A stretch of 51,568 nucleotides of DNA from an uncultured Planctomycetaceae bacterium (GCA_964433865.1 CAYSUC010000002.1:1-51568), one strand, 5' to 3'; positions 22,886-50,840 are shown, numbered from the stretch's first letter. Translations and numbers: made by a program. Notes: generated from the letters alone by a model not told the origin.

Positions 22886-22973
22886 ATCGGCCGCGCCCCC
22901 GGCGACTCGGCGCCGTGCGACGAGTTACAATGCATCGTAGGGGTTCGTTTCTCGTTGCGCGTGCGCGGATTCC

Positions 22974-27675: not shown

Positions 27676-27851
27676 CGCTGCGTCGTCGCACGGCGAGCCG
27701 ACGACGGCAGTCCCCGGTAGTCCGTTCCAGGTCGTGAAAGCACGGGTCGACGACGCCGACCCGCGCCACCGTTCCGGCCTGCGCGTTGACCCGACCTGTC
27801 GGGCCGGGCATATTGCAACCGTCGCAGCGTCGGTCGATGATCGACTGCTCG

Positions 27852-27863
27852 CCCCCCCCCCCC
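27852..27863. repeat. Homopolymeric C12 tract in the sulfatase-fusion upstream region
   Basis: gCCCCCCCCCCCCgg, ending 31 nt before ATG 27895. Confidence 0.95.
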
Positions 27864-27894
27864 GGATTTTCGTCGTCCGATCAACGAGGCCTGC

Positions 27895-30261: not shown

Positions 30262-30276
30262 CGAGGCCGGCCGTCG

Positions 30277-33200: not shown

Positions 33201-33438
33201 GGCCTTGGCACGACGAGTCGTCGCGGAGCGGCCGGGCCCGGACGTCGACGAGCGGCTGACCTTCGCCTTCCGGCTGTGTACGGCCCGGCCGCCGAACGCG
33301 CGAGAGTCGGCGGTGCTGCGACGGCTGTACGCCGACGAACGCGCGGCCCACGGAGCCGCGAAAGACGCCGACGACCGGGCCTGGTACGCCGTCGCGACGG
33401 CGCTGTTGAACCTGGACGAGACGATCACGAAGGAATGA
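30277..33438 (+). CDS. PSCyt1 / PSCyt2 (DUF1549) / PSD1 (DUF1553) domain protein
   Basis: N-terminal signal, then the planctomycete cytochrome-c-type motif FPILRRSCFECHGPEKQEGDLRLD, DUF1549-like RRLHFDLVGLPPSPEEV, central CCQCHDHKYDPFTQRDYY, and a DUF1553-like C-terminal third. Confidence 0.85.
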   Translation: MNSASRWFRAAAVVAVMVGSPFAAAIHGEESAVPPVDFARDVFPILRRSCFECHGPEKQEGDLRLDERAAALRGGASGPAFVAGSPEASELLRRVLLPKDEAEVMPARGERLAAREIATLRRWIAAGADWPQRVEVARHWAYVQPQRPQPPTLDDPWIRAPIDAFVLDRLRREGLKPAPEAAPETLIRRLHFDLVGLPPSPEEVETFVRAYSSTAATPSSRSVPAVTASGSMAERERVYAALVDKLLASPQFGERWARPWLDLARYADSHGFQRDDLRTLWPYRDWVIRALNDDLPFDRFTIEQIAGDLLPDANEATRIATGFHRCTTTNVEAGSEPEETRVNQVFDRVNTTGAVWLGTTFECCQCHDHKYDPFTQRDYYRLFAYFNNTEIEADRANPKVPGSIAFRGPSMDLHDPEVAARRAALEAKVAELHKRLEARRAELAASLDDWESDLGATTATAPQSHVLRPTTIDSTEGSEGVLLDDGSILYAGEDPPATDVYEYAVTTTLTDVRAVKLEALTDQRLPGEGPGRGDPNRPNFVLHAFEATAAPVDKPTAVVKIAFAKAAASFAQSRFDVAGAIDDDPQTAWAINPRFHQPHWALFETAKPVGFAGGTVLRFRLVQNFGGSRLIGKVRLTAITGTAGGAELPAAVAAVLKTPAAARTKQQREVLLDHRSGLDPEVVRWKREQTAVEAELRDVKPVATLVMREVEPRPSAVFLRGVYTSPGERVSPGVPSALHPLPADAPDDRLALARWLVDRDNPLTARVTVNRWWAEVFGHGLVTTVEDFGLKGEPPTHPELLDWLAVELMEPSVAAEGRTPPTAWSMKHVLRLIVSSSTYRQSSTLTPEAAERDDRNLLYARGPRLRLDAEAIRDNALAIAGLLSKKQFGPPIKPPQPDGLWTKVGGERYEYVVSPGEDKYRRGLYVVWKRGSPYPSFINFDASQRTACTVKRSRSNTPLQALTLLNDPVYVEAAQALARRVVAERPGPDVDERLTFAFRLCTARPPNARESAVLRRLYADERAAHGAAKDADDRAWYAVATALLNLDETITKE

Positions 33439-33988: not shown

Positions 33989-34009
33989 AGCCCCCGGACG
34001 AGAACTCTC

Positions 34010-35434
34010 ATGAACCGAATCGATGCGCTACGACGTCGGGCGTTCCTGGGCGAATCGGCGCGGGGGTTCGGTGCGATCGCGTTGGCCGAGTTGCTGAACT
34101 CCGGAGGCGCTCGCGCCGCGACGAGCGACGACCCTGCGATCGCTCGTAAGCCGCACCATGCGCCCCGGGCCAAGCACGTCATCTATCTGCACATGATCGG
34201 CGGGCCGTCGCAACTCGACCTGTTTGAGCCCAAGCCGGAGTTGACGAAGCGCGACGGCGAGAAGTGCCCGGAAGAGCTGACCCGCGGCAAACGCTTCGCC
34301 TTCATCGGCGACAACCTGACGCTCGCCGGCAGCGCGTTCCGGTTTGCGAAGCACGGACGGTCGGGCCTGGAATTCTCCGAACTGTTGCCGAACCTGGCAC
34401 GCAGCGCCGACGACGTCTGCGTGCTGCGGTCGGTGCATACGGAAGAGATCAACCACGCGCCGGCGCAGATGTTTCTGCACACCGGCTTCGGACGCGGCAA
34501 CCGGCCGAGCGTCGGTTCGTGGGTCACCTACGGCCTGGGCTCGGAATCGAACGACCTGCCGGCGTACGTCGTGATGTTGTCGGGTCCGTTGGGCGGAGCG
34601 GGGACGTCGCTCTGGAGCGCCGGATTCCTGCCGAGCGTCTACCAGGGGATCCAGTTCCGTTCGAGCGGCGAGCCCGTGCTGTTTCTTACGAACCCGTCGG
34701 GGGTCGCCCGGGACGATCGTCGGCGAGTGCTGGACGCCGTCGAGGCGCTCGATCAGGAACGATTGACGGCGGTCGGCGATCCGGAGATCGCCACTCGCAT
34801 TCGGCAATACGAGATGGCGTTTCGCATGCAGACGTCGGTGCCGAACCTGATGGACTTCGCGGACGAGTCGGCCGAGACGCTGGCCGCCTACGGCGCGGCG
34901 CCGGGCAAGCCTTCGTTCGCAGCCAACTGTCTGCTGGCGCGGCGATTGATCGAGCGCGGCGTGCGGATCGTCGAATTGTACGACGCCGATTGGGATCATC
35001 ACAATTCGCTGGCCACGCGGCTGCCGGCGAAGTGCAAAGACGTCGACCGGCCGATGGCCGCGCTCGTCGAAGACCTGAAGCAACGCGGGCTGTTGAACGA
35101 GACGCTCGTCGTGTGGGGCGCGGAGTTCGGCCGCACGCCGCTACGGCAAGGGATCGACGCCGCCGGAACCGAGACGAAGCCCGGACGCGACCATCACAAA
35201 GACGCTTACTGCATGTGGCTGGCCGGCGGCGGCGTGAAGGGAGGCGTCGCCTACGGGCGGACCGACGACTTCGGCTTCAACGTCGTCGACGAGGGGGTTC
35301 ACGTTCACGATCTGAACGCGACGATTTTGCACTTGTTGGGTCTGGATCACGAGCGGCTGACGTACAAGTATCAAGGCCGCGAGTTCCGGCTGACCGACGT
35401 CGAAGGTCGCGTGCTGAGCGAAATTCTGACCTGA
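34010..35434 (+). CDS. DUF1501 domain protein (sulfatase-like fold) with a Tat signal
   Basis: MNRIDALRRRAFLGESARGFGAIALA (twin-Arg). HVIYLHMIGGPSQLDLFEPKP, ...DHH..., GRDHHKDAYCMWLAGGGVKGG. Confidence 0.85.
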   Translation: MNRIDALRRRAFLGESARGFGAIALAELLNSGGARAATSDDPAIARKPHHAPRAKHVIYLHMIGGPSQLDLFEPKPELTKRDGEKCPEELTRGKRFAFIGDNLTLAGSAFRFAKHGRSGLEFSELLPNLARSADDVCVLRSVHTEEINHAPAQMFLHTGFGRGNRPSVGSWVTYGLGSESNDLPAYVVMLSGPLGGAGTSLWSAGFLPSVYQGIQFRSSGEPVLFLTNPSGVARDDRRRVLDAVEALDQERLTAVGDPEIATRIRQYEMAFRMQTSVPNLMDFADESAETLAAYGAAPGKPSFAANCLLARRLIERGVRIVELYDADWDHHNSLATRLPAKCKDVDRPMAALVEDLKQRGLLNETLVVWGAEFGRTPLRQGIDAAGTETKPGRDHHKDAYCMWLAGGGVKGGVAYGRTDDFGFNVVDEGVHVHDLNATILHLLGLDHERLTYKYQGREFRLTDVEGRVLSEILT

Positions 35435-36076: not shown

Positions 36077-36223
36077 GCGCTGCTCGACTTCTGCGAGGCT
36101 GCCGCGAAACGTCGCTCGCGGTCGGTATCCGCATCATGGGTGTCGGGCCGCGCCGCGTCAAGCCGCCGCCGCTTGTCCGACGTCGCACCGCCCCCTATTC
36201 TCTGATCGTTCAGCGTTTCGTCG

Positions 36224-36955
36224 ATGCGAGACACTCCGGCCATGTCGAAAGCGCCGCCGCTGCTCCGGCTTCAAGACGTCGGCAAGACCTACCACATGGG
36301 CGAGGTGGCGGTCGAGGTGCTGAAGCACGTGACGATCGACGTCGACGCGGGGCGCGTCTTGGCCGTGTTGGGCCCCAGCGGTTCGGGCAAGAGCACGCTG
36401 CTGAACCTGATCGGCGGACTCGACCACGCTTCCTGCGGACGCATCTGGTTTCGCGATCGCGAGATGACGAAGTTCTCGCTGCGCGAACTGACGGCCTACC
36501 GGCGCGAAACGGTCGGGTTCGTCTTTCAGTTCTACAATCTCGTGCCGAACCTGACGGCCCGAGAGAACGTGATGGTGTCGACCGAGTTGAGCCGCGACCC
36601 GCTGGACGTCGACGAGGCGCTGCGGTTGGTGGGTTTGACCGAGCGCAGCGGTCATTTCCCGTCGCAGATGTCGGGCGGCGAACAACAGCGGGTGGCCATC
36701 GCCCGCGCGTTGGCGAAGAATCCGGAGTTGTTGCTGTGCGACGAGCCGACCGGCGCGCTCGATTTCGACACCGGCAAGCGCGTGCTGCGGCTGCTGGTCG
36801 ACGCCTGCCGCACGCTGGGAAAGACCGTGGCGGTGATCACGCACAACGCGGCCATCGCGCAAGTGGCCGACCGCGTCATCCGCTTCCGTTCCGGCGAGAT
36901 CGTCGAGGCCCACGAGAACGAATCTCCCGCCGCGCCGGAGGAGATCACGTGGTAG
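36224..36955 (+). CDS. ABC transporter ATP-binding protein (MacB/LolD/YbbA type)
   Basis: Walker A GPSGSGKSTLLN, signature MSGGEQQRVAIARAL, Walker B LLLCDEPTGALD. An alternative ATG at 36242 (MSKAPPLLRLQDVGKTY) is equally likely. Confidence 0.9.
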   Translation: MRDTPAMSKAPPLLRLQDVGKTYHMGEVAVEVLKHVTIDVDAGRVLAVLGPSGSGKSTLLNLIGGLDHASCGRIWFRDREMTKFSLRELTAYRRETVGFVFQFYNLVPNLTARENVMVSTELSRDPLDVDEALRLVGLTERSGHFPSQMSGGEQQRVAIARALAKNPELLLCDEPTGALDFDTGKRVLRLLVDACRTLGKTVAVITHNAAIAQVADRVIRFRSGEIVEAHENESPAAPEEITW

Positions 36956-36957
36956 GA

Positions 36958-39330
36958 GTGCTCGACCGCAAGCTGTGGCGCGACCTGAAAGGCACGGGCC
37001 TGCTACTGGCGGCGGTCGGCAGCATCATGGCGATCGGCGTCTCGGCGTACGTCGCCTTGGGCGTGGCGTATCGCAATCTGACGACGGCGCAGCGGCTGTA
37101 CTATGTGCAGTGCCGCATGGCCGACTTCACGCTTGACCTCAAGAAGGCCCCGCTGGCCGACGTGCAACCGGTCGCCGACCTGCCGGGAGTCGTCGAAATC
37201 CGACCGCGCATTCAGTTCCTGTCGGTCGTCGACCTGGAAGACGTCGACGAACCGATCAACGGCATCGTGCTTTCGCTGCCCGATCGCCGCGAGTCGGTCA
37301 TCAACGACGTCGTGCTTCAGCAGGGGAGCTACTTCACCGACCGCAGAGACAACGAGGTGATCGTCAACGACGCCTTCGCTCGGGCGCGCAACCTGTATCC
37401 CGGCATGTGGGTTCACCTGCTGCTGAACAACCGACGTCAGGAACTGTTCATCGTCGGCACGGCCATCAGCAGCGAGTTTACGTACTTGGTCGGTCCGGGA
37501 ACGATGGTTCCCGACGCCCGGCGGCTGGGCGTGTTCTACCTGAAGCAGACGTTCGCCGAAGAGGTGTTCGATTTTCAAGGGGCCTGCAATCAGGTGGTCG
37601 GCCGGATGTCGCCGCGTGAAGCCGCGCACCCCCGCGAGACGTTGCGACGCGCCGAGGTCCTGCTCGACGCCTACGGTGTGTTGAACACCGTGCCGCTAGC
37701 CGACCAACCTTCGAATCGGTTTCTGAGCAACGAGATCATGGGCCTGCGGGCGTTCGGCGTCATCAACCCGGCCATCTTTCTGGCCGTGGCGGCTTTGGTG
37801 CTCAACGTACTGATGTCGCGACTGGCCGAACAGCAGCGGGTCGTCGTCGGCACGCTCAAGGCGCTGGGCTATTCCGACTTCGCCGTGTTCCGCCACTTCC
37901 TGATGTTCGGGCTGGTCGTCGGTGCGCTGTCGGGTGTCGCGGGGTGCGGGCTGGGCTACTGGCTGGCCGCGGGCATGACCGCCATGTACGACACGTTCTT
38001 TCAGTTTCCGACGCTCGAAAACCGCTTTCACCTCGACATCACGCTGCAAGGATTCGTCATCGGCCTGGTGTGCGGCGTGCTCGGGTCGCTGCACGGCGCG
38101 CGCGAGGTATTGAAGCTCGAACCCGCCACGGCCATGCGACCGAAGCCTCCGCCGTCGGGCGGCGCCGTCTTGCTCGAGCGCTGGACCGGCCTGTGGAACC
38201 GGCTGAGTTTCGCCTCGCGGATGGCTTTGCGGAACATTTTGCGAAACCGACTGCGGACCGCCGCCGGACTGTTCGCCTCGGCCATGGGGGCGACCTTGTC
38301 GGTCGATGCCCTGCTGCTGGCGGTCGAGACGATCCACATGGTCGACTTTCAGTTCGAGTTGGTGCAGCGGTCCGACCTCGATCTGACGTTCAAGGACGAG
38401 CGCGGCCGAGCGGCGCTCGACGAGGCCCGACGTCTGCCGGGCGTCGACCTGGCCGAACCGGTGTTCGACGTCGGTTGCACGTTCGCCAACGGTTCGCACG
38501 TGCGCAAGGGAACGATCACCGGCGTGGCGGTCGACGCCGTACTGACCCGGCCCCGCGACTCGCAAGGTCGCCCGCTGCGGATTCCCGAGTCGGGCCTGTT
38601 GCTGACGAAGAAGATGGCGGAAATTCTGCACGTCGGCCGCGGCGAATCGCTGACCGTTCAAACGACGCGCGGGCTGCGCGATACGTACGTCGTGCACGTC
38701 GCGGAGATCGCCGACAGCTTTCTGGGCATCGGCGTGTATGCGAGCGCCGAGTTCCTGGCCCGCTTGTTGAAAGAGGAATTCGCGCTGAACGGAGTGCAGT
38801 TGCTCGTGCGTCCGGGCGAGGAAGCCCGACGAGCGTTGTACCGCGAGATCAAGCAACTTCCGGCGGTGCAGGGCGTGTCGGCCCGCGCCGACGTCGTCCG
38901 CAACGTCCGCAACACGCTGGTGAAGAATCAGCACGTATTCATCGGACTGCTGGTGTTCTTCGCCGGCATCATCTTCTTCGGCAGCGTGCTGAATTCGTCG
39001 CTTGTCAGCCTGGCCGAGCGGCGGCGCGAGGTGGCCACGCTGCGGGTCCTGGGCTATGGTCCGTGGCAGGTCGGGGCGTTGTTTCTGCGCGAAAGCCTGA
39101 TCGTCAACGTCGCCGGAACGTTGCTCGGCCTGCCGTTGGGGTTCCTGCTGAACTACGCCGTGCTGCTGGCGTACGATACCGAGATGTTTCGTATTCCGCT
39201 CGTGAACCCGACCGGCGTATGGCTGCTGGTCTTGGCGTTGGGCGTCGCTTTCGGACTGGCCGCGCACCTGTTCGTGCAGCGGAGCATCCACAAGATGGAT
39301 TGGCTCGACGCGCTGAAGACGCGAGAATAG
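36958..39330 (+). CDS. ABC transporter permease with two FtsX-type modules (YbbP/MacB-like)
   Basis: Only the part of track ORF 36136..39330 after the ATPase stop is real. GTG 36958 gives (M)LDRKLWRDLKGTGLLLAAVG...; GTG 36949 is an alternative. Pattern is TM1, large periplasmic domain, 3 TM, repeated twice (~790 aa). Confidence 0.8.
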   Translation: MLDRKLWRDLKGTGLLLAAVGSIMAIGVSAYVALGVAYRNLTTAQRLYYVQCRMADFTLDLKKAPLADVQPVADLPGVVEIRPRIQFLSVVDLEDVDEPINGIVLSLPDRRESVINDVVLQQGSYFTDRRDNEVIVNDAFARARNLYPGMWVHLLLNNRRQELFIVGTAISSEFTYLVGPGTMVPDARRLGVFYLKQTFAEEVFDFQGACNQVVGRMSPREAAHPRETLRRAEVLLDAYGVLNTVPLADQPSNRFLSNEIMGLRAFGVINPAIFLAVAALVLNVLMSRLAEQQRVVVGTLKALGYSDFAVFRHFLMFGLVVGALSGVAGCGLGYWLAAGMTAMYDTFFQFPTLENRFHLDITLQGFVIGLVCGVLGSLHGAREVLKLEPATAMRPKPPPSGGAVLLERWTGLWNRLSFASRMALRNILRNRLRTAAGLFASAMGATLSVDALLLAVETIHMVDFQFELVQRSDLDLTFKDERGRAALDEARRLPGVDLAEPVFDVGCTFANGSHVRKGTITGVAVDAVLTRPRDSQGRPLRIPESGLLLTKKMAEILHVGRGESLTVQTTRGLRDTYVVHVAEIADSFLGIGVYASAEFLARLLKEEFALNGVQLLVRPGEEARRALYREIKQLPAVQGVSARADVVRNVRNTLVKNQHVFIGLLVFFAGIIFFGSVLNSSLVSLAERRREVATLRVLGYGPWQVGALFLRESLIVNVAGTLLGLPLGFLLNYAVLLAYDTEMFRIPLVNPTGVWLLVLALGVAFGLAAHLFVQRSIHKMDWLDALKTRE

Positions 39331-39393
39331 ACGCGGTCCCGCTCCGCCGCCCGCGCAAGAACGAACACCGAGAACCGAGAATCGAACCTGCCC

Positions 39394-40755
39394 ATGCGCT
39401 GGATCCTGGCCGTCGTCGCCTTGTCGCTGCTCGCCGCGGCGGTCGTCTACTCGTCGCTCACGGCCGGAGCGGTCGTCGAGTGCGCTCGGTCCGAGAAGCG
39501 CGAGATCCGCGAGTTCGTCGACGAGCAGGCTCAAACACGGCTGCCGATCTCGCATCTCATCACGACGCCGTTCGAGGGGCGAGTGGAAGCCGTCGGCCTG
39601 GCCGAAGGAAGCGCGGTCAAGAAGGGGGACGTCGTCGCCACGCTCGTGCCTCGCGACCTGGAACTATCGCTGGAAGAGGCGCAGGCCGCGAAACGACGCC
39701 TCGACGCCTCGATCCGCGAGAGCGGCGACAAATCGGTCGAGAAGACCACCTGGACCCAGTCGCTCGAGTACGTCAAGAGCATGGTCGCCACGGTGCAGGC
39801 GGCCCAGGCCCGCGTCGAGTCCGGACTGGCCAAGCTCGACTACGCCAATAAGACGCTGGCCCGCACTCGAGCCTTGAGAGAACTGAACAACGCCAGCGAA
39901 GATCAATTGAACTCCGCCGAACTGTCGCAGGTCGAGGCGCAGGTCGACTACCGCCAAGACCAACTGGTGCTCAAGGCGCTGGAAGCGATGCTCGCCGCCA
40001 CGCAACTGGTGCCGACCGTCGTCGAACGTTACATGGATCGTAAAGACCTGACCGTGGCGGTGCTGGAGAACGAACGGGCCCAGGCCGACGTCCGACTGCG
40101 GATCGAACAACGCGACATGGAGCGGGGCGTCATGCGCAGCCCCGTCGACGGCGTCGTGCTCGAACGGCTCGAGCAGAACGAGCGTTTTCTGCCCGGCGGT
40201 ACCGTGCTGCTGAAGATCGGCGCCACGGAGCAACTCGAGGTCGAAGCCGATGTGCTGAGCCAGGATGTGGGCCGAGTTCGCGCGGGGCAGGAGGTCGAGA
40301 TCTACGGCCCCGCCGTCGGGTCGGAATCGGTGCGGGGAACCGTCGATCGAATCTATCCGGCCGGCTTCACGAAGGTCAGTTCGCTGGGCGTCGAGCAGCA
40401 GCGGGTCAAGGTCATCGTACGATTCGCCTCGGCCGATCTCGTACGATTGGTCGCCCAGCGGAAGTTGGGCGTCGGCTATCGCGTCCGCGTGCGCATCTTC
40501 ACGCAAGTCAAACCGCAGGCGCTGGTCGTGCCGCGGGCCTCGTTGTTTCGCGGCCCCGACGGTCGGTGGCGGGTGTTCGCCTTGCGCGACGGTCGGGCGC
40601 GACAGGTCGTCGTCGACGTCGGCCTGATGAACGATCAAGCGGTCGAGATCGCCGGCGGGGTGAACGAAGGCGAACTCGTCGTCCTGGCTCCGGAGTCGAC
40701 GCTCGTCGACGGGACGCGGATTCGCCCGGCCGAAACCGGCGGCAACTCGCAATAG
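39394..40755 (+). CDS. HlyD-family periplasmic adaptor (membrane fusion protein)
   Basis: N-terminal TM, lipoyl-like PFEGRVEAVGLAEGSAVKKGDVVATL, long coiled-coil hairpin, beta-barrel SPVDGVVLER, ...VRIFT...ALVVPRASLF. Confidence 0.85.
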   Translation: MRWILAVVALSLLAAAVVYSSLTAGAVVECARSEKREIREFVDEQAQTRLPISHLITTPFEGRVEAVGLAEGSAVKKGDVVATLVPRDLELSLEEAQAAKRRLDASIRESGDKSVEKTTWTQSLEYVKSMVATVQAAQARVESGLAKLDYANKTLARTRALRELNNASEDQLNSAELSQVEAQVDYRQDQLVLKALEAMLAATQLVPTVVERYMDRKDLTVAVLENERAQADVRLRIEQRDMERGVMRSPVDGVVLERLEQNERFLPGGTVLLKIGATEQLEVEADVLSQDVGRVRAGQEVEIYGPAVGSESVRGTVDRIYPAGFTKVSSLGVEQQRVKVIVRFASADLVRLVAQRKLGVGYRVRVRIFTQVKPQALVVPRASLFRGPDGRWRVFALRDGRARQVVVDVGLMNDQAVEIAGGVNEGELVVLAPESTLVDGTRIRPAETGGNSQ

Positions 40756-40773
40756 TCGCTACGCAGGCACGCC

Positions 40774-41538
40774 ATGCAAATCCGCGATCGATCGTTTCTC
40801 GTGACCGGCGGAGCTTCGGGACTGGGCGCGGCCTGCGCGCGAATGTTCGTCGCAGCCGGCGGAAGCGTGGTCATCGCCGACGTCGACGAGCCGCGCGCCT
40901 CGCAACTCGTCGCCGAGCTCGGCTCGGGCGCGCAGTGTTTGCCGACCGACGTCGCCGATCACGCGGCCGTCGACAGGGCCGTCGCGGCCGCCGAGCGACT
41001 CGGTCGTTTCGCCGGAGCCGTCGCTTGCGCCGGAATCGCTCCGGCGGCCAAACTCGTGGGCCGCGACGGTCCTCACGACGCGGCCCTCTTCGAGCGAGTC
41101 GTTCGCATCAACCTGCTCGGCACGTTTCACCTGCTGCGGGCCGCAGGGGCCGCGCTGCAACAGGTCGAACCGACGACCGACGGGGAACGGGGCGTCATCG
41201 TTTGCACTTCCTCGATCGCCGCCTTCGACGGACAGATCGGTCAGACGGCCTACGCGGCCTCGAAGGGGGGCGTCGCCGCCATGACCCTCCCCGCCGCTCG
41301 CGAATTCGCCCGCTTCGGAGTCCGCGTCGTCGGCATCGCGCCGGGGATCTTCGAGACCCCGCTCGTCGCCGCAATGCCCGAGGAAGTACGAGCCTCGCTG
41401 GCAGCGCAGGTCCCCTTTCCTCCGCGCTTCGGCCGACCCGAGGAATTCGCCTCGCTCGTGCGGCACGTCTTCGAGAATTCGATGCTGAACGGCGAGGTCG
41501 TGCGACTCGACGGAGCGGTACGTCTCGGCCCGCGTTAG
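40774..41538 (+). CDS. SDR-family dehydrogenase (3-hydroxyacyl-CoA dehydrogenase type-2-like)
   Basis: FLVTGGASGLGAA. SSIAAFDGQIGQTAYAASKGGV (S...YxxxK). IAPGIFETPL. Confidence 0.82.
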   Translation: MQIRDRSFLVTGGASGLGAACARMFVAAGGSVVIADVDEPRASQLVAELGSGAQCLPTDVADHAAVDRAVAAAERLGRFAGAVACAGIAPAAKLVGRDGPHDAALFERVVRINLLGTFHLLRAAGAALQQVEPTTDGERGVIVCTSSIAAFDGQIGQTAYAASKGGVAAMTLPAAREFARFGVRVVGIAPGIFETPLVAAMPEEVRASLAAQVPFPPRFGRPEEFASLVRHVFENSMLNGEVVRLDGAVRLGPR

Positions 41539-41541
41539 GTC

Positions 41542-41595
41542 GACAAGGTCGTCCGGTTGCCCGGTCAGCCTTGTCCATTTTCCGATTGTCTTTTA
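41542..41595 (+). terminator. Hairpin plus T-rich tract between the SDR and the KS-like gene (terminator or attenuator)
   Basis: GACAAGG (41542-41548) pairs with CCTTGTC (41569-41575), with an inner CCGG-TTGC-CCGG helix. Followed by CATTTTCCGATTGTCTTTT. Confidence 0.45.
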
Positions 41596-41606
41596 CCCTT
41601 GCGAAG

Positions 41607-42863
41607 ATGAACGAATCGGTCGTAGTCACGGGCGTGGGGATCGTTTCGCCGATCGGCATCGGCGTCGGGGCCGTACGTGCGGCCGTAGCGGCCGGTCGGA
41701 GCGGCGTGCGGAGCTTGCAGGCGTTCGAGCCCGTCGGTCTGCCGATGCGGATCGCCGCCGAAGTGCTCGACTTCGACCCGAAGCAGTACGTCAAGCCGCG
41801 GAAAAGTCTGAAGGTGATGTCGCGCGAGATCCAACTCGCGTTCGCCGCCGCCGACGAGGCCTTCGCGCAGGCCGCGATTCCGCCGAACTCGATCGATCCG
41901 GAACGCTTCGGCGTCACGCTCGGCAGCGACCTGATTCAGCCCGACCCGCACGAAACCTGGCCCGCGTTCACGGCCTGCATGGTCGACGGCCGGTTCGACT
42001 TCGCGCGGTGGGGCGAGGCGGCCATGCGAGCCGTTTCGCCGTTGTGGATGCTCAAATACCTGCCGAACATGCCGGCCTGCCACATCGGCATCGCGCTCGA
42101 TGCTCGCGGGCCGAACAACACGATCACGCTCGGCGAGGTTTCCGGCCCGACGGCCGTCGCCGAGGCCGCGCATGCGATCGAACGGGGGGCGGCCGACGTC
42201 ATGTTGGCCGGCGGGACCGGATCGCGATTGATGCCGACGACCCTGTCGCGTCACGCAGTCGGCCCGGTATCGCGCCGCAACGACGAACCGGAGCGAGCCG
42301 CTCGGCCGTTCGACGCCGATCGCGACGGCGAAGTGCTCGGCGAGGGGGCGGCGGCGCTGCTGCTGGAAAGCGAACGCTCGGCCCTGCGACGCGGCGCGCC
42401 GATCTTGGCGCGCATCGCGGGATTCGGTTCCGCCTTCGGTCGTCGAGCCCACGGGGGCGTCACCTCGACGGCGGTCGAACAAGCGATCCGGCGTGCCCTC
42501 GGCGACGCCTCGCTGCACGCGCACGATCTGGGTGCGGTCGCTCTGCACGGCCGCTCGACCCGCGCCGACGATCCGGTCGAGGCCGCCGGGGTTCGGGCCG
42601 TGTTGGGGGACGTACCCTGCACCGCGATGTCGAGTTACTTCGGCAATCTCGGTTCCGGCGGCGGGGCGGTGGCGGCGGTCATGATGATCGACGCCCTAGC
42701 GACGGGCCGCATCCCGCCGACGCTCAACTACGAGCGGCCCGACCCGGAGTGTCCGGTGCGGATCGTCTCCTCCGCCGGGCGGCCGTTCGACCGGCCCGCG
42801 GTTCTGGTACTCAACCAAACGCCGACCGGGCAAGCGACGGCGTTGGCGCTGGTCGGCGCGTAA
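41607..42863 (+). CDS. Beta-ketoacyl synthase (FabF/KAS-II fold) homologue lacking the Cys-His-His triad
   Basis: ATG 41607 inside ORF 40566..42863: MNESVVVTGVGIVSPIGIG... By hand alignment to E. coli FabF, RGPSISIATACTSG corresponds to RGPNNTITLGEVSG (Cys -> Glu177, codon 42135-42137). HGTST corresponds to HGRST (His kept). KSMTGH corresponds to SSYFGN (Lys -> Ser, His -> Asn347, codon 42645-42647). Confidence 0.75.
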   Translation: MNESVVVTGVGIVSPIGIGVGAVRAAVAAGRSGVRSLQAFEPVGLPMRIAAEVLDFDPKQYVKPRKSLKVMSREIQLAFAAADEAFAQAAIPPNSIDPERFGVTLGSDLIQPDPHETWPAFTACMVDGRFDFARWGEAAMRAVSPLWMLKYLPNMPACHIGIALDARGPNNTITLGEVSGPTAVAEAAHAIERGAADVMLAGGTGSRLMPTTLSRHAVGPVSRRNDEPERAARPFDADRDGEVLGEGAAALLLESERSALRRGAPILARIAGFGSAFGRRAHGGVTSTAVEQAIRRALGDASLHAHDLGAVALHGRSTRADDPVEAAGVRAVLGDVPCTAMSSYFGNLGSGGGAVAAVMMIDALATGRIPPTLNYERPDPECPVRIVSSAGRPFDRPAVLVLNQTPTGQATALALVGA

Positions 42864-42906: not shown

Positions 42907-43545
42907 TCATCGTTCGGCCGCACCCAACTCGGGAAACACGTCGGGCGACAGGCGCCGTCGGCGGAGCGCGTCGCGCAGGCGTTCCAGAAAATCGAACTTG
43001 TAGTTCGCGACCTGCTGTTCCGATAGATTCAACGCGGCGGCCGTCTCCTTGTTCGGCAGCCCGCGCACGAACAGCAGTTCCAAACACGCCACGCGGTTCC
43101 ATTCGCCGCGCTCGCGCCAGCGGCCGACGATCTCGGTCAGGGCCTCGGCCAAGGCGGCCGACTCGAGTTCGCGCCGCTCGGCGCTGCGGACGTAACTGCC
43201 CGCCGAGCGCCCCGGGTCGGCGGGTTCGCGCAAGGGGGCGTCGGAATCGTCTCCCACGGTCAGCGGCACCGTCGGACGGCGCCCGCGTCGTCGCAGCACG
43301 TCGGTCAGCTTGTGCGCCGCGATCGTGAACAGGTAGGTTTCCAATCCGCGCGACGGGTCGAAATTCGGCAAGCTGACGAGGAACCCGAGAAACGTCTCTT
43401 GCACCACGTCGTCGACCGCCGCGGAGTCGTCCAGCCGGGCGCGAACGAACGCCGTCAATCGACCTTCGTAGCGCGCGATGAACTCGCGCCACGCGTCCGG
43501 ATCGCCCCGGCGAATCTGATCGAGAAACGTCGCTTCGCCCGTCAC
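42907..43545 (-). CDS. ECF-type RNA polymerase sigma-70 family factor
   Basis: GTG 43545, 3 nt after the upstream stop. Region 2: DAWREFIARYEGRLTAFVRARL...DDVVQETFLGFL, YLFTIAAHKLTDVLRRR. Region 4: ACLELLFVRGLPNKETAAALNLSEQQVANYKF. Unusually long linker between them. Confidence 0.88.
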   Translation of the reverse strand: MTGEATFLDQIRRGDPDAWREFIARYEGRLTAFVRARLDDSAAVDDVVQETFLGFLVSLPNFDPSRGLETYLFTIAAHKLTDVLRRRGRRPTVPLTVGDDSDAPLREPADPGRSAGSYVRSAERRELESAALAEALTEIVGRWRERGEWNRVACLELLFVRGLPNKETAAALNLSEQQVANYKFDFLERLRDALRRRRLSPDVFPELGAAER

Positions 43546-43548
43546 GCC

Positions 43549-44247
43549 TTATCTCCGTATGACGTCGACATGGCCGGCCCCCAGCACGAACAGCACGACC
43601 ACCACCACGAGGACCAGCAAGACGGCAACGCCCCAGCTTCGCCGCGCGGCGCGCGGCGCCGGACGAGCGCCGTTGCGAAAGCGTGCGAGGCCCGCGACGA
43701 TCGCCAGACCGACCATCAGGCCGCCGTAGCCGTAGGCGAAGTGCAGGAGTCGCGCGCGCCGCAACTCGCCGAGCGCCGCGGCCTCCCATTCGCGCCGCAA
43801 CTTGTCGTCGAACTTCAGCTGCGCATGCAGGTACACGAGTTCCATCTCGCGAGTTCGGATCGTCTCTTGCCAGAAGGGGCCCTCGACGACGCGCGGCCGG
43901 AGCGACTCGTACTCGAACGTCAGGTGTTCGGCCAAATCGGGGCCCAAAACTTTGAAGGCGTACGTGCGAACCGCATCGACGACGGCGTCCGGCAGCTTTC
44001 GCTCGCATTCGGAACGAGTCGCTTCCGGGCCGACGAAGGTCTTGGCATAGTACGCGCCCCCGCGCAACTCGGGCGCGGCATCGACCCACTTCGGACGTTC
44101 GAACGAAACGACCGCGGGCCCGTTCGCGCCGGCGGGCGGCTCGGCAGTCGTCGGTGCCGGGCGCTCGGTCGACGGTTCGGGCGTGTCGGGTGCCGCCGGC
44201 GCCGTCAACAGCAGAACGCCGAACATGCCGAGGGCGGCGAGGGTCAT
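43549..44247 (-). CDS. Hypothetical envelope protein (signal peptide, ~150-aa exported domain, two C-terminal TM helices)
   Basis: The real gene is the 3' third of track ORF 43549..46107. ATG 44247 overlaps the upstream TGA (ATGA). MTLAALGMFGVLLLTAPAAP..., C-terminal YGGLMVGLAIVAGLA and WGVAVLLVLVVVVVLFVLGAG. Confidence 0.6.
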   Translation of the reverse strand: MTLAALGMFGVLLLTAPAAPDTPEPSTERPAPTTAEPPAGANGPAVVSFERPKWVDAAPELRGGAYYAKTFVGPEATRSECERKLPDAVVDAVRTYAFKVLGPDLAEHLTFEYESLRPRVVEGPFWQETIRTREMELVYLHAQLKFDDKLRREWEAAALGELRRARLLHFAYGYGGLMVGLAIVAGLARFRNGARPAPRAARRSWGVAVLLVLVVVVVLFVLGAGHVDVIRR

Positions 44248-45704
44248 GCGGCACCTCGTCGACCGGTCGATGCGAACCGCGCGACTTCGTCGCCGCGCGG
44301 GGCGGCGAACTGCACCGTCAAGACGATGGTCGCCTGAGCGAGCATGCCCCAAGGCTGCGGAAACGGAACGATGAAGTGGACCGCGCCGGCCCAGAGCACG
44401 GCGACCGCGGCGTAGGAAAAGTCGAAGGTTCCGCGGCGATGTCGACCGCGGGGCAGGTTGTGCCACCAGGCGGTGAGGAACGACGTCAGACCGAAATACA
44501 GGACGAACGCGGGCCAGAGGGGCGACGACGACGCGTCGTAACATTCGCTCCATTGGCGCACGCCGACGCCCCACTCGCCGTACTCGAACGGGAGGTCGAC
44601 GTGCAGATATCGATACACGCACCACGAGACGAAACCGGCGAAACAGCCCCCCAAAGCGTGCAGCATCCGACGTCGGGCCGGATGACGGTCGGCATCGCCG
44701 CGGACCGACAGTGATTCGACGACGAGGACCGCCACGGCTGCGGCCGAGGCCGTGGCGACGAGCCAGGCCCACTGTTCGAGCGCCGGCCCGGCGCCGCGGA
44801 CGATGAGCACCAATCGAGCCAGGACGATGCTCGCACCCAGGGCGACGGCCGACGCTCCGACGATCGGGGCGAAGCGGGGCGCGCTCGGGCCGAAGTACAG
44901 CGCCGCATCCGGCAGCGAGCCGGAGCGGAACTCGTGCGTGGGATGCCCCTCGTCCGATCGCCGACGTTCGACGATTTGTCGACGCACCAGCCCGACGACT
45001 CCGCCGCCGATGAGCAGCAGCACGAGGAAGCCCATCCACGGCATGCGGACCGCGAACGCCTCTTGCGGCGTGGCGTTCGGAGCGGCGCCGCGGACCGCGT
45101 CGCGCTCCGCTTCCAACGTACGCAGCGTGCGAAGCCGTGCCTCGCGTTCGACGTCGGCGGCCGTTCCGCTCGGCGTCGCCGGGGCGTTCGACGGCGTTTT
45201 CCGATCCATGCGGACGATTTCCTGCCGCGCCTGCTCGATCCGTTCGGCCAACGCTTCTTCGCGCATGACCGTCGCGGCGACCTGCTGTTCGATGTTCGCC
45301 TTCCGGAAGAACCAAACGCCGAGCGTAAGCAGCATCAACGCCGCGAGCCCGGCGAGCACCGACGCCGACCGTCCTCGGACCGAAGGGGGCGCCGTGGCAC
45401 CCGAAGGTGCGGCGACGGAGCGACCGGGCCCCCGTCCGGCGATGCGATACGTCACGCCGACCGACGACATGAGCATGAGCAGCAGCAAGGTCTGCAGCGC
45501 CGAACCGGCGACGATGAACGCGAACCAAACGTACAGGGCCGTGGCGCAACCGATGACGAAGTAGATGATCTCGGGGGGCGGCAATCGGCGGAAGGCCGGG
45601 CGCGCAGCCGAGGGGGCGACGTTGCGCGCGATCGCCAGCAAGCCGATGGGGGCGAGCGCCGACGCAACGGCGATGACGAGGATCAGGCCGAGGCTCATGT
45701 TCAT
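44244..45704 (-). CDS. Hypothetical polytopic membrane protein (~10 TM) with a central coiled-coil loop
   Basis: Real 3' part of track ORF 44244..46631. ATG 45704 overlaps the kinase TGA (ATGA). MNMSLGLILVIAVASALAPIGLLAI... Loop: KANIEQQVAATVMREEALAERIEQARQEIVRMDRK...EREARLRTLRTLEAERD. Confidence 0.6.
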   Translation of the reverse strand: MNMSLGLILVIAVASALAPIGLLAIARNVAPSAARPAFRRLPPPEIIYFVIGCATALYVWFAFIVAGSALQTLLLLMLMSSVGVTYRIAGRGPGRSVAAPSGATAPPSVRGRSASVLAGLAALMLLTLGVWFFRKANIEQQVAATVMREEALAERIEQARQEIVRMDRKTPSNAPATPSGTAADVEREARLRTLRTLEAERDAVRGAAPNATPQEAFAVRMPWMGFLVLLLIGGGVVGLVRRQIVERRRSDEGHPTHEFRSGSLPDAALYFGPSAPRFAPIVGASAVALGASIVLARLVLIVRGAGPALEQWAWLVATASAAAVAVLVVESLSVRGDADRHPARRRMLHALGGCFAGFVSWCVYRYLHVDLPFEYGEWGVGVRQWSECYDASSSPLWPAFVLYFGLTSFLTAWWHNLPRGRHRRGTFDFSYAAVAVLWAGAVHFIVPFPQPWGMLAQATIVLTVQFAAPRGDEVARFASTGRRGAA

Positions 45705-46849
45705 CGTGGTGCGCCTCCGCGACGGAGCAGCCACACGCAAAGCGACGCAGGCACGACGAACAGCAGGGCATACGTCGCGAACATCTGCGGAAAGCGCAGT
45801 TCCCGACTCGCGGCCGACAAGCCGACCGTATCGGAAACGATCGCCAGCCCGATGAACGGCAAGGGGAGCAGCAGGTAGTGCCACCAGCGGCTGCCGAAGC
45901 CCGACGTCTCGGCAGCGTGCCCGGCGCGTCGGCCGACATCGGTCGGCACGTCGTCGTTCGCGGCGACGCGTCCGGCCCCGTCGGCGAAACCGAGGGGGAC
46001 CGGCGGCGCATCGGCCGACCACGAGGGATCGACGCGCTGCGCGAATTCGGCCACCGTTTGCGGCCGTTTCGCCGGATCCTTCGACAGGGCCGCGCCGACG
46101 GCCGCACGAAAACGTTCCGGAACGACCGCGAGATCGGGCTCGGCCGTGAGGTGCTTCATCAAGATCTCGCCGACGCTTTCGCCGTCGAACGGCACGCAGC
46201 CGGTGAGCAGTTCGTACAGGATCACGCCCAAGGCATAGATGTCGATTTGCTTGCCGTAGCGACCGTTGGCGATTTCCGGCGCCATGTAGTGCACGGTCCC
46301 CACGCTCTCGGTTTGTCCGCTGCGTCGGCTGACGGAGATGAACTTCGACAATCCGTAGTCGCCGATTTTGACGACCCCGTTTTCGAGAAACAGGTTCGCC
46401 GGCTTGAGGTCGCGATGCACGATGCCGTTGTCGTGCAGGTAGGCCGTGCCCGCGGCGATTCCGCGAAACCATCGTAGGGCGTCGTCCGTCGGCATGCCGC
46501 GAGGATGCTGCGTCAGGACTTCGGCCAGGCGCGGCCCCGACACGTATTCCATCACGATCCAGTGATTGCCGTCGGCGTCGAGCCGGACGTCGAACAACGC
46601 CACGAGATCGGCGTGCTTGAGATTCAGGCATTGCCGCACGCCGCGAAGTTCGACTTCGAGATTGCGGCGCACGAGCTTCAGCGCGACTTCCTTTCCGGCT
46701 TCGCTGTGCGCGAAGTAGACCTCGCCGAAGCCCCCTTGCCCCAATCCTCGCTTGATGACGTAGCCCGGCAAGGGCTGCGACCCCGGCGGATGGGTGAACG
46801 CCGGTGCGCGCGGGTGTTCGAAAGGCCGAACGTCGGAGCGGGAAGCCAT
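45701..46849 (-). CDS. Membrane-anchored Ser/Thr protein kinase (Hanks type)
   Basis: LGQGGFGEVYFA, VALKLV, HRDLKPANLFL, IGDYGLSKF, GTVHYMAPE. Two C-terminal TM helices (WWHYLLLPLPFIGLAIV, FATYALLFVVPASLCVWLL). Confidence 0.9.
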   Translation of the reverse strand: MASRSDVRPFEHPRAPAFTHPPGSQPLPGYVIKRGLGQGGFGEVYFAHSEAGKEVALKLVRRNLEVELRGVRQCLNLKHADLVALFDVRLDADGNHWIVMEYVSGPRLAEVLTQHPRGMPTDDALRWFRGIAAGTAYLHDNGIVHRDLKPANLFLENGVVKIGDYGLSKFISVSRRSGQTESVGTVHYMAPEIANGRYGKQIDIYALGVILYELLTGCVPFDGESVGEILMKHLTAEPDLAVVPERFRAAVGAALSKDPAKRPQTVAEFAQRVDPSWSADAPPVPLGFADGAGRVAANDDVPTDVGRRAGHAAETSGFGSRWWHYLLLPLPFIGLAIVSDTVGLSAASRELRFPQMFATYALLFVVPASLCVWLLRRGGAPR

Positions 46850-46884
46850 AGGGCCGGTGCCTTCAAGGAGCGTCCGGTTGCGGA

Positions 46885-47502
46885 TTACGGCAGCGGTTCG
46901 AATCGCAGGGCGAAGTCGGGGCCGCGCACTTGCGACGTCCGTTCGATCCGCGACGTTCCCGACGTCGGCCGTCCGTCGACATCATACGACCCTTCGGTGC
47001 GAAACACCAAACCGCCGTCGGGACGGCGGTGGACGATCAACCGGCGACGCCAGCCGCGCGCCACGACGTGGTTCGCGGCCTCCGGACCGATCAGGCACGT
47101 GTCGGCCAGCAGCAGCACGGCGTCGGCGTGCGGTTGCAGGCGATGACGGCTGACGACTTCGAGCCGGGCCGTCCGGCCGCACGGGTTCGGAGTCGTAAAC
47201 CGCAGCCGCGGACCGCTTCCCGCGGCGCCGAGTTCGAAGATCGAGTCTTCGGCCAAGCGCACGGGATATCCGATCGCGCGGTCGCCGTAGCGACAGGGTC
47301 GATACGGCTCGAACAGGTAGAACTCGCCGTCGCGTCGCACGGCGGCGTGACGGCGCGAGATGTCGGCCATGATCGGCACGTCGACCTCGGCCTCGGGCGC
47401 GGGCTGACCCAGCGTGACCGTCGGACCTTCGCAAACCAGGTAACCGCCGACGCCGTCGATCCACAGCATGAAGCGCGACGGCGTCGAGACGGACCGATTC
47501 AC
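46885..47502 (-). CDS. FHA-domain protein (one clear and one degenerate FHA-like module)
   Basis: GTG 47502 (alternative ATG 47469). Module 1: WIDGVGGYLVCEGPTVTLGQ...DVPIMADISRRHAAVRRDGEFYLFEP...FELG. Module 2: LLADTCLIGPEAANHVV...LVFRTEG...VDGRP...FALRFE. Confidence 0.7.
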   Translation of the reverse strand: MNRSVSTPSRFMLWIDGVGGYLVCEGPTVTLGQPAPEAEVDVPIMADISRRHAAVRRDGEFYLFEPYRPCRYGDRAIGYPVRLAEDSIFELGAAGSGPRLRFTTPNPCGRTARLEVVSRHRLQPHADAVLLLADTCLIGPEAANHVVARGWRRRLIVHRRPDGGLVFRTEGSYDVDGRPTSGTSRIERTSQVRGPDFALRFEPLP

Positions 47503-47541
47503 GGAGGCAACCTATCGGCGGGTCGGGGATCGGCAGTCGAT

Positions 47542-48354
47542 TCAACGAGCATCCGGTTCAGACGTCGCGGTCGCCACCGATTGCGTCGCGGCGGGCCGCG
47601 CAAAGTACTCGGCGATCCGCCGCACGACGTCGCCGGATTCCTCCGCTTCGAGCGGGATGCACTCGCCGGGAGTTTCCTCGAGCGCCACCAGCCGTTCGGA
47701 CGCCTTCAGCCGCGACTCCAAATCTTGCAGCAATCGTTTCGTTCGGCTCAGCCGACCGTCGTCCAAGCACAGTCGATTCGAGGTGTCGGCCGCCTGCACC
47801 ATCTTCAGGCGCGAATCCAGTTGCTCGAGCTCGACTTCCAACTGACGCTTGGTTGCGATCATGCCCGACATCTTATCGCGCGCGGCGGTTAAACTCTTGG
47901 TGCGGGCCTCGCGAATCTTCCGCAAATTCTCCAGGGTTTCGTCGGCCGTACGGTGCCGATCGAAGCGGCGGCTCAGGTCGTCGCGGACTTGCAGGGCCGT
48001 GTACTCGCGGCCCGCGTAGCGGAAGTGCGCCCGGCCCGACTCGACGTCGCGGCTGAGCCGAGTGATCTCGGCCTTGTCCTTGGTTTGCCGCGTTTCGAGG
48101 GCCGCGATCTCCGCGTCGAGCCGCTCCAGGCCCGCCTCGGCTTCGGCGATGGCCACGAGATTCTTTTTCACCTCGGGAACCAGGTCGCCCAGCATCGTAC
48201 GGGCCCGGGCGATCTCGAATTCCAGGGGCACCGCCGCTCCGGCGGCGTCGACGACCTGCCCCCAGCCGGTCTTGAAATAGGACCATCCTCCGCGACCGAC
48301 GATGGCCGCGGCCAGCGCCACCATCGCGATCGTTCCGACGAACTTGCGACACAT
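47542..48354 (-). CDS. Membrane-anchored coiled-coil protein (PspA/IM30-like architecture is only a guess)
   Basis: Real 3' part of track ORF 47542..49518; ATG 48354: MCRKFVGTIAMVALAAAIVGRGGW... About 200 aa of heptad-like sequence follows (LERLDAEIAALETRQTKDKAEITRLSRDVE..., LEVELEQLDSRLKMVQ). Confidence 0.55.
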   Translation of the reverse strand: MCRKFVGTIAMVALAAAIVGRGGWSYFKTGWGQVVDAAGAAVPLEFEIARARTMLGDLVPEVKKNLVAIAEAEAGLERLDAEIAALETRQTKDKAEITRLSRDVESGRAHFRYAGREYTALQVRDDLSRRFDRHRTADETLENLRKIREARTKSLTAARDKMSGMIATKRQLEVELEQLDSRLKMVQAADTSNRLCLDDGRLSRTKRLLQDLESRLKASERLVALEETPGECIPLEAEESGDVVRRIAEYFARPAATQSVATATSEPDAR

Positions 48355-48494
48355 GTTCCACCTCCGCGACGGTACGAAAAAACGCCTGGGCGATGCCGGA
48401 AGACCTCCGGCCTCCCGTTGTTCGTCGCACCCGGAGAAATCTTGGAAGTTATTCGTCGGAAATCGATGAGAATTCGCAGACGGGCCGCCGCCGT

Positions 48495-50620: not shown

Positions 50621-50840
50621 GAAATGCCGCTCCCCCAGGGTAGGTCGCCGAGACCGATCTTGGCGAATGTAACGGAAATCTCGACGGGCAGAACCCCCCG
50701 CGCCCCGCGACGACGGCGAGAAGGCGGCGTTTCGGCGGCCGGGGCCGGTCGGCGGCGGACCCCGATTTGACCCCGTTCGTAGGTCGAACTAGGTTTGCGT
50801 GTCGCCCCTTCGTTCGGCGTCAATCGTTCTTGGTGTCGCG

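Follow-up and report, generated by a model that had tools for sequence, protein, structure and literature searches.

A split Hanks-type kinase and an absent anti-sigma gene in a planctomycetal ECF sigma factor operon

How is an extracytoplasmic function (ECF) sigma factor controlled when its gene shares an operon with a serine/threonine kinase and no anti-sigma gene stands beside it? The question is raised by six minus-strand genes in a 51,568-nucleotide stretch of DNA from an uncultured Planctomycetaceae bacterium (CAYSUC010000002.1 of assembly GCA_964433865.1; the whole stretch is referred to here as the window). In order, these genes encode a coiled-coil protein, an FHA-like protein, a Hanks-type kinase, two membrane proteins and an ECF sigma factor. 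Kinase-linked ECF sigma factors are known, and comprise groups ECF43, ECF59-62, ECF217, ECF267 and ECF283 (PMC7826278), four of which are planctomycetal (PMC8999054), but a mechanism has been worked out for ECF43 alone. The window operon is a lineage-specific rearrangement of a signalling operon that is widespread in Planctomycetota, with a kinase that is split and an anti-sigma gene that is absent, both of these being secondary changes. The locus also brings forward two new elements, namely an unnamed domain of six transmembrane (TM) helices belonging to Hanks kinases (the 6-TM domain, for which a search returned 235 cluster representatives), and a promoter motif, likewise conserved, that is directly testable.

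A conserved signalling operon in Planctomycetota

Each of the six open reading frames (ORFs) is an uninterrupted translation, and the tight coupling described in the initial annotation is read directly in the sequence. The operon opens with the gene of the coiled-coil protein (47542-48354; 270 residues), followed by those of the FHA-like protein (46885-47502; 205 residues) and the kinase (45701-46849; 382 residues). The TGA of the kinase gene shares bases with the ATG of the next gene (ATGA at 45704-45701), which encodes a polytopic membrane protein of 486 residues (44244-45704) and itself overlaps the gene of an exported membrane protein of 232 residues (43549-44247) in the same manner (ATGA at 44247-44244). 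Only 3 nt separate the TAA of the latter from the GTG of the sigma factor gene (42907-43545; 212 residues), and the stop codon of the sigma factor is followed, after 43 nt, by the end of a ketoacyl-synthase gene convergent with it.

Close relatives of this arrangement are few. In a search of a 5.8-billion-protein collection, the 486-residue and 232-residue proteins each had only three relatives, those of the 486-residue protein being full-length. The three contigs that carry the latter (L001, L004 and L006) keep the six-gene order together with the 4-nt overlaps, and the 486-residue protein is 48-87% identical among these relatives. The downstream flank is syntenic among them and the upstream flank is different in L001, so that the six-gene block moves as a unit. 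These relatives are metagenome-derived, and in species-representative genomes the FHA protein is found at no more than 51% identity.

The wider family was delineated by scanning a profile of the FHA-like protein against species-representative genomes, which gave at least 555 matching stretches and places the operon at as many genomic sites in Planctomycetota, a phylum rich in ECF sigma factors and serine/threonine kinases. A Planctomycetota label (Pirellulales, Planctomycetia, Thermoguttaceae, Blastopirellula) is borne by all of the 80 loci fetched except one titled ‘uncultured bacterium’. One hidden Markov model (HMM) was used per gene to score all ORFs of the fetched loci, and counts were taken from the 55 loci in which the flank downstream of the FHA gene reaches at least 7 kb. 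The kinase is present in 52 of these 55 loci, the 6-TM domain in 51, a homologue of the 232-residue protein in 50 and the sigma factor in 42. A small protein follows the sigma factor in 34 loci, which equates to 34 of the 42 that bear a sigma factor, and a coiled-coil gene precedes the FHA gene in 64 of the 67 loci whose upstream flank is long enough. Most often the order is coiled-coil protein, tandem FHA protein, kinase with 6-TM domain, periplasmic protein resembling the 232-residue one, ECF sigma factor and small zf-HC2 protein. All 42 sigma-bearing loci have the kinase in the same operon. The proposal that kinase, FHA protein, membrane proteins and ECF sigma factor constitute a linked, co-directional unit is thereby upheld across the phylum, the full order of the window being kept in three relatives and the core in at least 50 of the 55 loci.

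The kinase, its detached membrane domain and partner proteins

The kinase matches the Pfam Pkinase profile with E = 6.9e-48 and contains the full set of catalytic motifs (GLGQGG, VALK, HRDLKPAN, DYG and APE) of a Hanks-type enzyme. Hydropathy places a two-helix membrane hairpin at its C-terminus (TM 326-344 and 357-375). The enzyme is 71-79% identical to the kinase domains of long kinases in three other loci (L007-L009). A conserved Thr docking site in the juxtamembrane region (PTD motif) was also considered and discarded, being retained in the close clade alone.

What these long kinases carry beyond their catalytic domain is found here in the 486-residue protein. This protein, with ~11 membrane helices in its AlphaFold2 model, is divided into a variable N-terminal half, composed of TM helices and a loop that forms a helical hairpin, and the conserved 6-TM domain at the C-terminus (44247-44936, minus strand; residues ~257-486) with the motifs RRR..H, LPFEYG, YFGL..WW and PFPQPWG. 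Over its last ~210 residues, it shares 27-34% identity with the C-termini of the 586- and 636-residue kinases of L008 and L009 and with a 231-residue stand-alone protein encoded 3′ of the L007 kinase (E = 1e-16 to 3e-19 for the matches to L007-L009). With an HMM run exhaustively against 1.84 billion cluster representatives, 235 were returned at E <= 1e-3; the match was always the 6-TM domain, usually at the C-terminus of proteins of 560-850 residues, and eight of ten long matches tested had an N-terminal Pkinase domain. Kinase and 6-TM domain share one ORF in 45 of the 51 loci and are split in six, as they are in the clade of the window. Because it is homologous to kinase C-termini and so often fused to the kinase, the 6-TM domain is, as judged by homology, an unnamed membrane domain of planctomycetal Hanks kinases. 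The candidate reading of the 486-residue protein as an independent component was rejected, as its conserved C-terminus is the membrane domain that is kinase-fused in those 45 loci. In the AlphaFold2 model, the domain forms a confident six-helix bundle, with predicted local distance difference test scores (pLDDT) mostly >90 over residues 280-470, and the N-terminal half is of low confidence except for a confident helical hairpin at residues ~130-200. Foldseek found no related fold for the model in the PDB (best E = 0.37), and no Pfam family covers the 6-TM domain.

The 232-residue protein has, by hydropathy, a signal-peptide-like N-terminus and two C-terminal TM helices. A conserved domain of ~110 residues comes after the N-terminal segment and is predicted to be periplasmic, and the sole cytoplasmic segment is a basic loop of ~20 residues between the C-terminal helices. 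The orthologues of L001, L006 and L007 have typical signal peptides, and some other orthologues start with a TM hairpin. Proteins of 238-307 residues encoded between kinase and sigma factor in distant loci are homologous to it, and a homologue occupies this place in 50 of the 55 loci. Profile searches found no Pfam or NCBIfam family and no PDB match for the 232-residue protein, and neither it nor the 486-residue protein matches an anti-sigma family or contains an H-x3-6-C-xx-C or CxxC motif, their cytoplasmic loops being short or disordered. Since its domain lies behind a signal peptide and only ~20 residues face the cytoplasm, the 232-residue protein is, by its predicted topology, a periplasmic partner of the system rather than a conventional anti-sigma factor. 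The initial annotation had assigned neither membrane protein to a family. This stands insofar as neither matches Pfam or NCBIfam, known anti-sigma families included; the 486-residue protein, however, is no longer without kin, as it holds the membrane domain of the kinase.

The FHA-like protein is recognised poorly by the Pfam FHA profile (PF00498), which scores 13.3 bits in the window protein, below the gathering score of 20.7. It belongs to a family of at least 880 proteins of ~200-250 residues, and about half of the 120 members listed carry PF00498. A profile search of PDB sequences with a four-sequence family gave nothing meaningful. The AlphaFold2 model built with 92 homologues has a pLDDT of 94.5 and a predicted template modelling score (pTM) of 0.90, and consists of two β-sandwich domains. 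Its best Foldseek matches are all FHA domains (Ki67, Rv0020c, GarA, OdhI and EmbR), with probability 1.0 and target-normalised TM-scores of 0.5-0.66. Structures of the tandem FHA domains of the type VII secretion protein EssC (5fwh, 1wv3 and 9qks) align along its full length, over ~220 columns. As modelled, the protein is a cytoplasmic tandem FHA fold. Residues Ser49, Arg50 and His52 are kept, with Ser and His each present in 89 of the 92 members. The likeness to EssC is one of fold only (9-11% identity and a high root-mean-square deviation); the phosphopeptide-binding residues are degenerate in both, and the window protein is free-standing in contrast to the ATPase-fused domains of EssC. In L010 (9026-10597) and L017 (9068-10579), the tandem FHA protein is ~500 residues long, such that the 205-residue protein of the window represents a short form. 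The N-terminal extension of ~300 residues in these two loci is helical, rich in Ala and Arg, and without a Pfam match; it accounts for the gap that, in many loci, had been considered a candidate extra gene between the coiled-coil and FHA genes.

The coiled-coil protein has one N-terminal hydrophobic segment by hydropathy, the rest being long and mostly helical or coiled-coil. Searches of Pfam, NCBIfam, PADLOC and PDB profiles returned coiled-coil noise, even with a 44-sequence profile, and no Pfam family was assigned. The suggestion that it resembles PspA was not borne out: PspA_IM30 (PF04012) gave no match at E <= 1, PDB searches with profiles of 3 and of 44 sequences returned neither a PspA nor a Vipp1 chain, and the N-terminal hydrophobic anchor itself differs from PspA/IM30. 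PADLOC gave no component match for the FHA, 486-residue, 232-residue or sigma proteins, with just generic kinase and coiled-coil matches elsewhere, and a reading of the operon as an anti-phage defence system was dropped since the matches were of this generic kind.

The sigma factor, its promoter and the missing anti-sigma gene

The sigma factor matches Sigma70_r2 of Pfam with E = 9.6e-17, with weak matches in region 4, and scores 71.4 bits against the NCBIfam model TIGR02937 (cut-off 42.9), which identifies it as a member of the ECF family. It falls outside TIGR02989, the Rhodopirellula/Verrucomicrobium ECF subfamily, with 51 bits against a cut-off of 124.55 and a match confined to the sigma2 half. 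An alignment of 52 sequences of the family gives A-(S/A)-E-D-(V/I)-V-Q-E as the consensus of region 2.2, which reads AVDDVVQE in the window; Asp47 is invariant and position 46 is Glu or Asp in all 52. ECF43 sigma factors have an uncharged QTTA or STTA with a conserved Thr in place of the region 2.2 DAED (PMC13147305, PMC8103513), and their activation by phosphorylation has been demonstrated (PMC13147305, PMC8103513, PMC8999054). Because region 2.2 is acidic here, the sigma factor lacks the defining feature of the EcfP type, and the ECF43-type switch implied by the initial annotation does not fit it. The linker between sigma2 and sigma4 contains a cluster of Ser residues (R-x-A-S-S-x-x-R-S-G-E-R), of which S118 and S122 are ~94-98% conserved, and the phosphosites EcfK T106 and SigH T106/T110 fall in the corresponding linkers (PMC13147305). 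Beyond region 4, a C-terminal tail with the sequence L-S-x-D-V-F-P-E-L (window 42907-42960) is kept in nearly all 52 sequences, with or without a zf-HC2 gene 3′ of the sigma factor; this DVFPEL tail may be a docking motif.

A candidate promoter of the operon was found upstream of the coiled-coil gene, where related loci share the motif T(T/C)CCAA(G/T)AT-N14-(G)CGAA(T)(A)AC. The window copy reads TTCCAAGAT-N14-CGAACAAC (48417-48447, minus strand) and lies ~66 nt upstream of the coiled-coil ATG. Among 75 loci, 42 have the pattern CAA[GTA]A[TGA]-N13-15-CGA[AC] at 50-210 nt upstream of the coiled-coil gene, compared with 0.7 in shuffled sequences, and a strict scan of 2.55 Mb of locus DNA gave 42 matches, 30 of them within 300 nt upstream of this gene. 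The AA and CG cores are 17 nt apart, which is the spacing of ECF promoters. The motif probably acts as an ECF-type promoter for the operon, and the operon may be autoregulated by its own sigma factor. A scan of 42.7-48.6 kb found no sigma-70-type promoter, no Rfam family matched in 42-49 kb of the window, and terminator-like sites in the operon region were no more frequent than expected by chance. The predicted 5′ leader, between the promoter motif and the start of the coiled-coil gene, contains a GC-rich hairpin, CCGGAGGTCTTCCGG (48410-48396, minus strand), and a run of six T residues (48385-48375) ~10 nt after it. The terminator scan passed over this feature, and a T-rich element resembling TTTCGTTGACCC occurs at a comparable position in several further loci. 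A second, weaker match to the promoter pattern (50809-50833, minus strand) lies upstream of M29 aminopeptidase and EamA genes, which precede the operon on the same strand. This match is kept in L004, and was rejected as a second promoter because it is weak and its flanks do not fit the consensus.

The feature of the family that the window lacks is the small gene at the end of the operon. In 34 of the 42 sigma-bearing loci, a soluble protein of ~135 residues is encoded within a few dozen bases 3′ of the sigma factor. Its consensus is LEAYLDEAL...RRDAG.HSLGEIWRRHRLSCP...FHLE..GCR.C.ANL.DL...RR.KYFQSSAGYLR, in which one His and three Cys are invariant and the C-terminal RR.KYFQSSAGYLR tail is strongly conserved. 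The Pfam family zf-HC2, a zinc finger of anti-sigma factors, is matched by 25 of 37 members, at E = 1.8e-6 in the best case; matches to NCBIfam anti-sigma models are weak, and a profile search of PDB sequences with this family gave nothing meaningful. In examples such as that of L009 (12476-12886), the NCBIfam models match either half of the protein, as though the anti-sigma N-terminal motif had been duplicated within it.

The zf-HC2 profile finds nothing in the 51.5-kb window, nor in L001, L004, L006 or L008, and a motif scan detected HxxxCxxC or CxxC in none of the six operon proteins, in agreement with the initial annotation that the window contains no anti-sigma gene. There is also no room for such a gene 3′ of the window sigma factor, because the convergent ketoacyl-synthase gene ends 43 nt away. 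On a neighbour-joining tree of the sigma factors, where the clade of the window sits on a long branch, the loci without the zf-HC2 gene are scattered (among them the clade of the window, L008/L050, L079, L032, L078, L085 and L015). This scatter indicates, insofar as the tree can be read, that the gene has been lost, or moved, several times. Since the family normally has the zf-HC2 gene, a kinase in place of an anti-sigma factor is a secondary loss and not the design of the system, contrary to what had been assumed from the window alone.

Control of the sigma factor and genomic surroundings

The explanation judged best, and on balance probable, is that a split-kinase sensor and the FHA protein took over control of the sigma factor following loss of the anti-sigma factor, and that the operon re-induces itself. 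We infer that one membrane sensor complex would comprise the kinase, the 6-TM domain now separate from it and the periplasmic 232-residue protein, and that in this complex a signal from the envelope or periplasm, conceivably envelope stress, would turn the kinase on. The tandem FHA protein would act as an adaptor or substrate, through which the kinase would signal to the sigma factor, and the active sigma factor would in turn re-induce the operon from its own promoter. The ancestral form of the system would have placed the sigma factor under two controls, the zf-HC2 anti-sigma factor and the kinase, in a manner like that of PknB with RshA or RseA. With the anti-sigma factor lost, the kinase/FHA layer would be the only post-translational control left here, and would probably target the sigma factor itself, for example at a conserved Ser of the sigma2-sigma4 linker and not at an EcfP-like region 2.2. 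The kinase layer is probably able to control the sigma factor alone, because the anti-sigma gene has been lost repeatedly. It is doubtful, in turn, whether the strictest form of this explanation holds, in which the anti-sigma factor is truly lost and not encoded elsewhere, the split kinase and tandem FHA protein alone switch the sigma factor by a route other than that of EcfP (linker phosphorylation, or phospho-dependent capture and release by the FHA protein), and the 6-TM domain and 232-residue protein are a new sensor input for a Hanks kinase.

Several observations count against the explanation judged best. The canonical Arg of the GR motif, which binds phosphothreonine, is replaced by Gln in 78 of the 92 members of the FHA-like family, including that of the window, and phospho-dependent binding is therefore uncertain. 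Thus, of the initial description of this protein as a phosphothreonine reader, the FHA fold is retained on the strength of model and family, whereas the reading of phosphothreonine is in question. FHA domains prefer phosphothreonine, whereas the conserved residues of the sigma factor linker are Ser, and S117 of this cluster is Gly in the clade of the window. The membrane orientation of the coiled-coil protein is ambiguous. The search having covered 51.5 kb, the source genome may hold an unlinked anti-sigma gene outside the window. Furthermore, 13 of the 55 loci have the core genes without a sigma factor inside 9 kb, so the sigma factor may not be the sole or main output of these genes.

Foremost among the alternatives is the model of the initial annotation, a switch of the EcfP/PknT kind that operates without an anti-sigma factor, in which the sigma factor is a direct substrate of the kinase, its phosphorylation permitting binding to core RNA polymerase. 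The lack of an anti-sigma gene in the window and its three close relatives is consistent with such a switch, as is the repeated, independent loss of the zf-HC2 gene, which suggests that the gene is dispensable and another layer of control present. Additionally, the conserved linker Ser residues lie where EcfK T106 and SigH T106/T110 are phosphorylated (PMC13147305). The model is nonetheless unlikely, given that E/D46 and D47 occupy region 2.2 in 52 of 52 sequences where ECF43 has the uncharged QTTA or STTA (PMC13147305, PMC8103513), and that the operon in its ancestral, majority form carries a zf-HC2 gene 3′ of the sigma factor. The ECF43 pairs EcfP/PknT (Vibrio parahaemolyticus) and EcfK/PknS (Xanthomonas citri) have in common with the window an ECF sigma factor encoded beside a membrane Hanks kinase, linker Ser/Thr positions like EcfK T106 (PMC13147305) and, for the window and its clade though not for most of the family, the lack of an anti-sigma gene. 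Here, in contrast, region 2.2 has the acidic A-S/A-E-D, the unit comprises four additional conserved genes, most relatives have a zf-HC2 gene, and the sensor part of the kinase is the 6-TM domain instead of a periplasmic domain.

A second alternative regards the core genes as serving an envelope, division or secretion process of their own, with the sigma factor as an optional neighbour that drives or shares their transcription. This would account for the 13 sigma-less loci, among which L007, L021, L052, L060, L061, L065, L069 and L089 have the coiled-coil, FHA, kinase and 232-residue-protein genes and the promoter motif. The motif is thus kept without an adjacent sigma factor (e.g. L007, L052, L065 and L089), and the tandem FHA protein is similar to the FHA pair of EssC, which is phospho-independent and belongs to a secretion ATPase. 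The sigma gene, however, lies directly 3′ of the gene of the periplasmic protein in 42 of the 55 loci, with a gap of 3 nt in the window, and ECF sigma factors are commonly co-encoded with their regulators (PMC7826278), which makes the alternative improbable. Least probable is a disguised sigma/anti-sigma pair with either membrane protein as an unconventional anti-sigma factor, for although the 232-residue gene is always immediately upstream of the sigma gene and tightly coupled to it, and many anti-sigma factors fit no known family (PMC7826278), the 232-residue protein is retained in sigma-less loci and has its domain behind a signal peptide with a sole cytoplasmic loop of ~20 residues, the conserved part of the 486-residue protein is the kinase membrane domain with cytoplasmic loops disordered in the model, and neither has an anti-sigma motif or family match.

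A related system is that of Mycobacterium tuberculosis, where SigH/RshA and SigE/RseA combine an ECF sigma factor and a soluble zinc-finger anti-sigma factor with the kinase PknB as a second layer (PMC8999054, PMC13147305). This resembles the ancestral six-gene form seen in 34 loci. The mycobacterial kinase, however, is encoded elsewhere and has PASTA domains, whereas the kinase is in the operon here and the anti-sigma factor is missing from the window. The planctomycetal groups ECF59, ECF61, ECF62 and ECF217 come from the same phylum and have the same linkage of ECF sigma factor and serine/threonine kinase. By their description, they are typically without a co-encoded anti-sigma factor (PMC7826278), whereas the operon family described here mostly has zf-HC2. 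The combination of kinase, tandem FHA protein, periplasmic partner, sigma factor with an acidic region 2.2 and usual zinc-finger anti-sigma factor points to two-layer control, which contrasts with the published view of kinase-linked groups as being without anti-sigma factors. The recurrent losses of the anti-sigma gene, and the splitting of the kinase in this lineage, could serve as natural experiments on which layer suffices for control. A search of the literature, outside of which key planctomycetal papers lie such that a prior description is possible, found no description of a partnership of this sigma factor with the tandem FHA protein, coiled-coil protein, periplasmic protein, 6-TM kinase and, mostly, zf-HC2 protein, nor, within the same limit, of such a kinase-linked operon combined with an acidic region 2.2.

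A comparable set of genes is found in the threonine-phosphorylation pathway of Pseudomonas aeruginosa type VI secretion (PpkA, Fha1, PppA and TagQRST), in which kinase, FHA and periplasmic or membrane sensor proteins are co-encoded and the output is assembly of the secretion apparatus. The set of kinase, FHA protein and accessory proteins is similar, but the window operon has a sigma factor as its output and no PP2C phosphatase.

The genes downstream of the sigma factor (window 36206-42863) encode a ketoacyl synthase, a short-chain dehydrogenase, a membrane-fusion protein, an FtsX permease and an ABC ATPase (MacAB-like), and a DUF3467 protein. The ketoacyl synthase gene is convergent with that of the sigma factor, and the remaining genes of this flank are also on the strand opposite to the operon. 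This flank is syntenic in L001 and L004, with the ketoacyl synthase absent from L001. Further away on the plus strand, the window contains hallmark planctomycete genes for a PSCyt1/PSCyt2/PSD1 protein (30262-33438) and a DUF1501 protein (33989-35434), the former adjoined by a sulfatase gene (27841-30261). A second, unrelated serine/threonine kinase of ~1150 residues is encoded at 22941-26402 (plus strand), with a large C-terminal WD40 β-propeller region, a design of kinase and WD40 repeats that is typical of planctomycetes.

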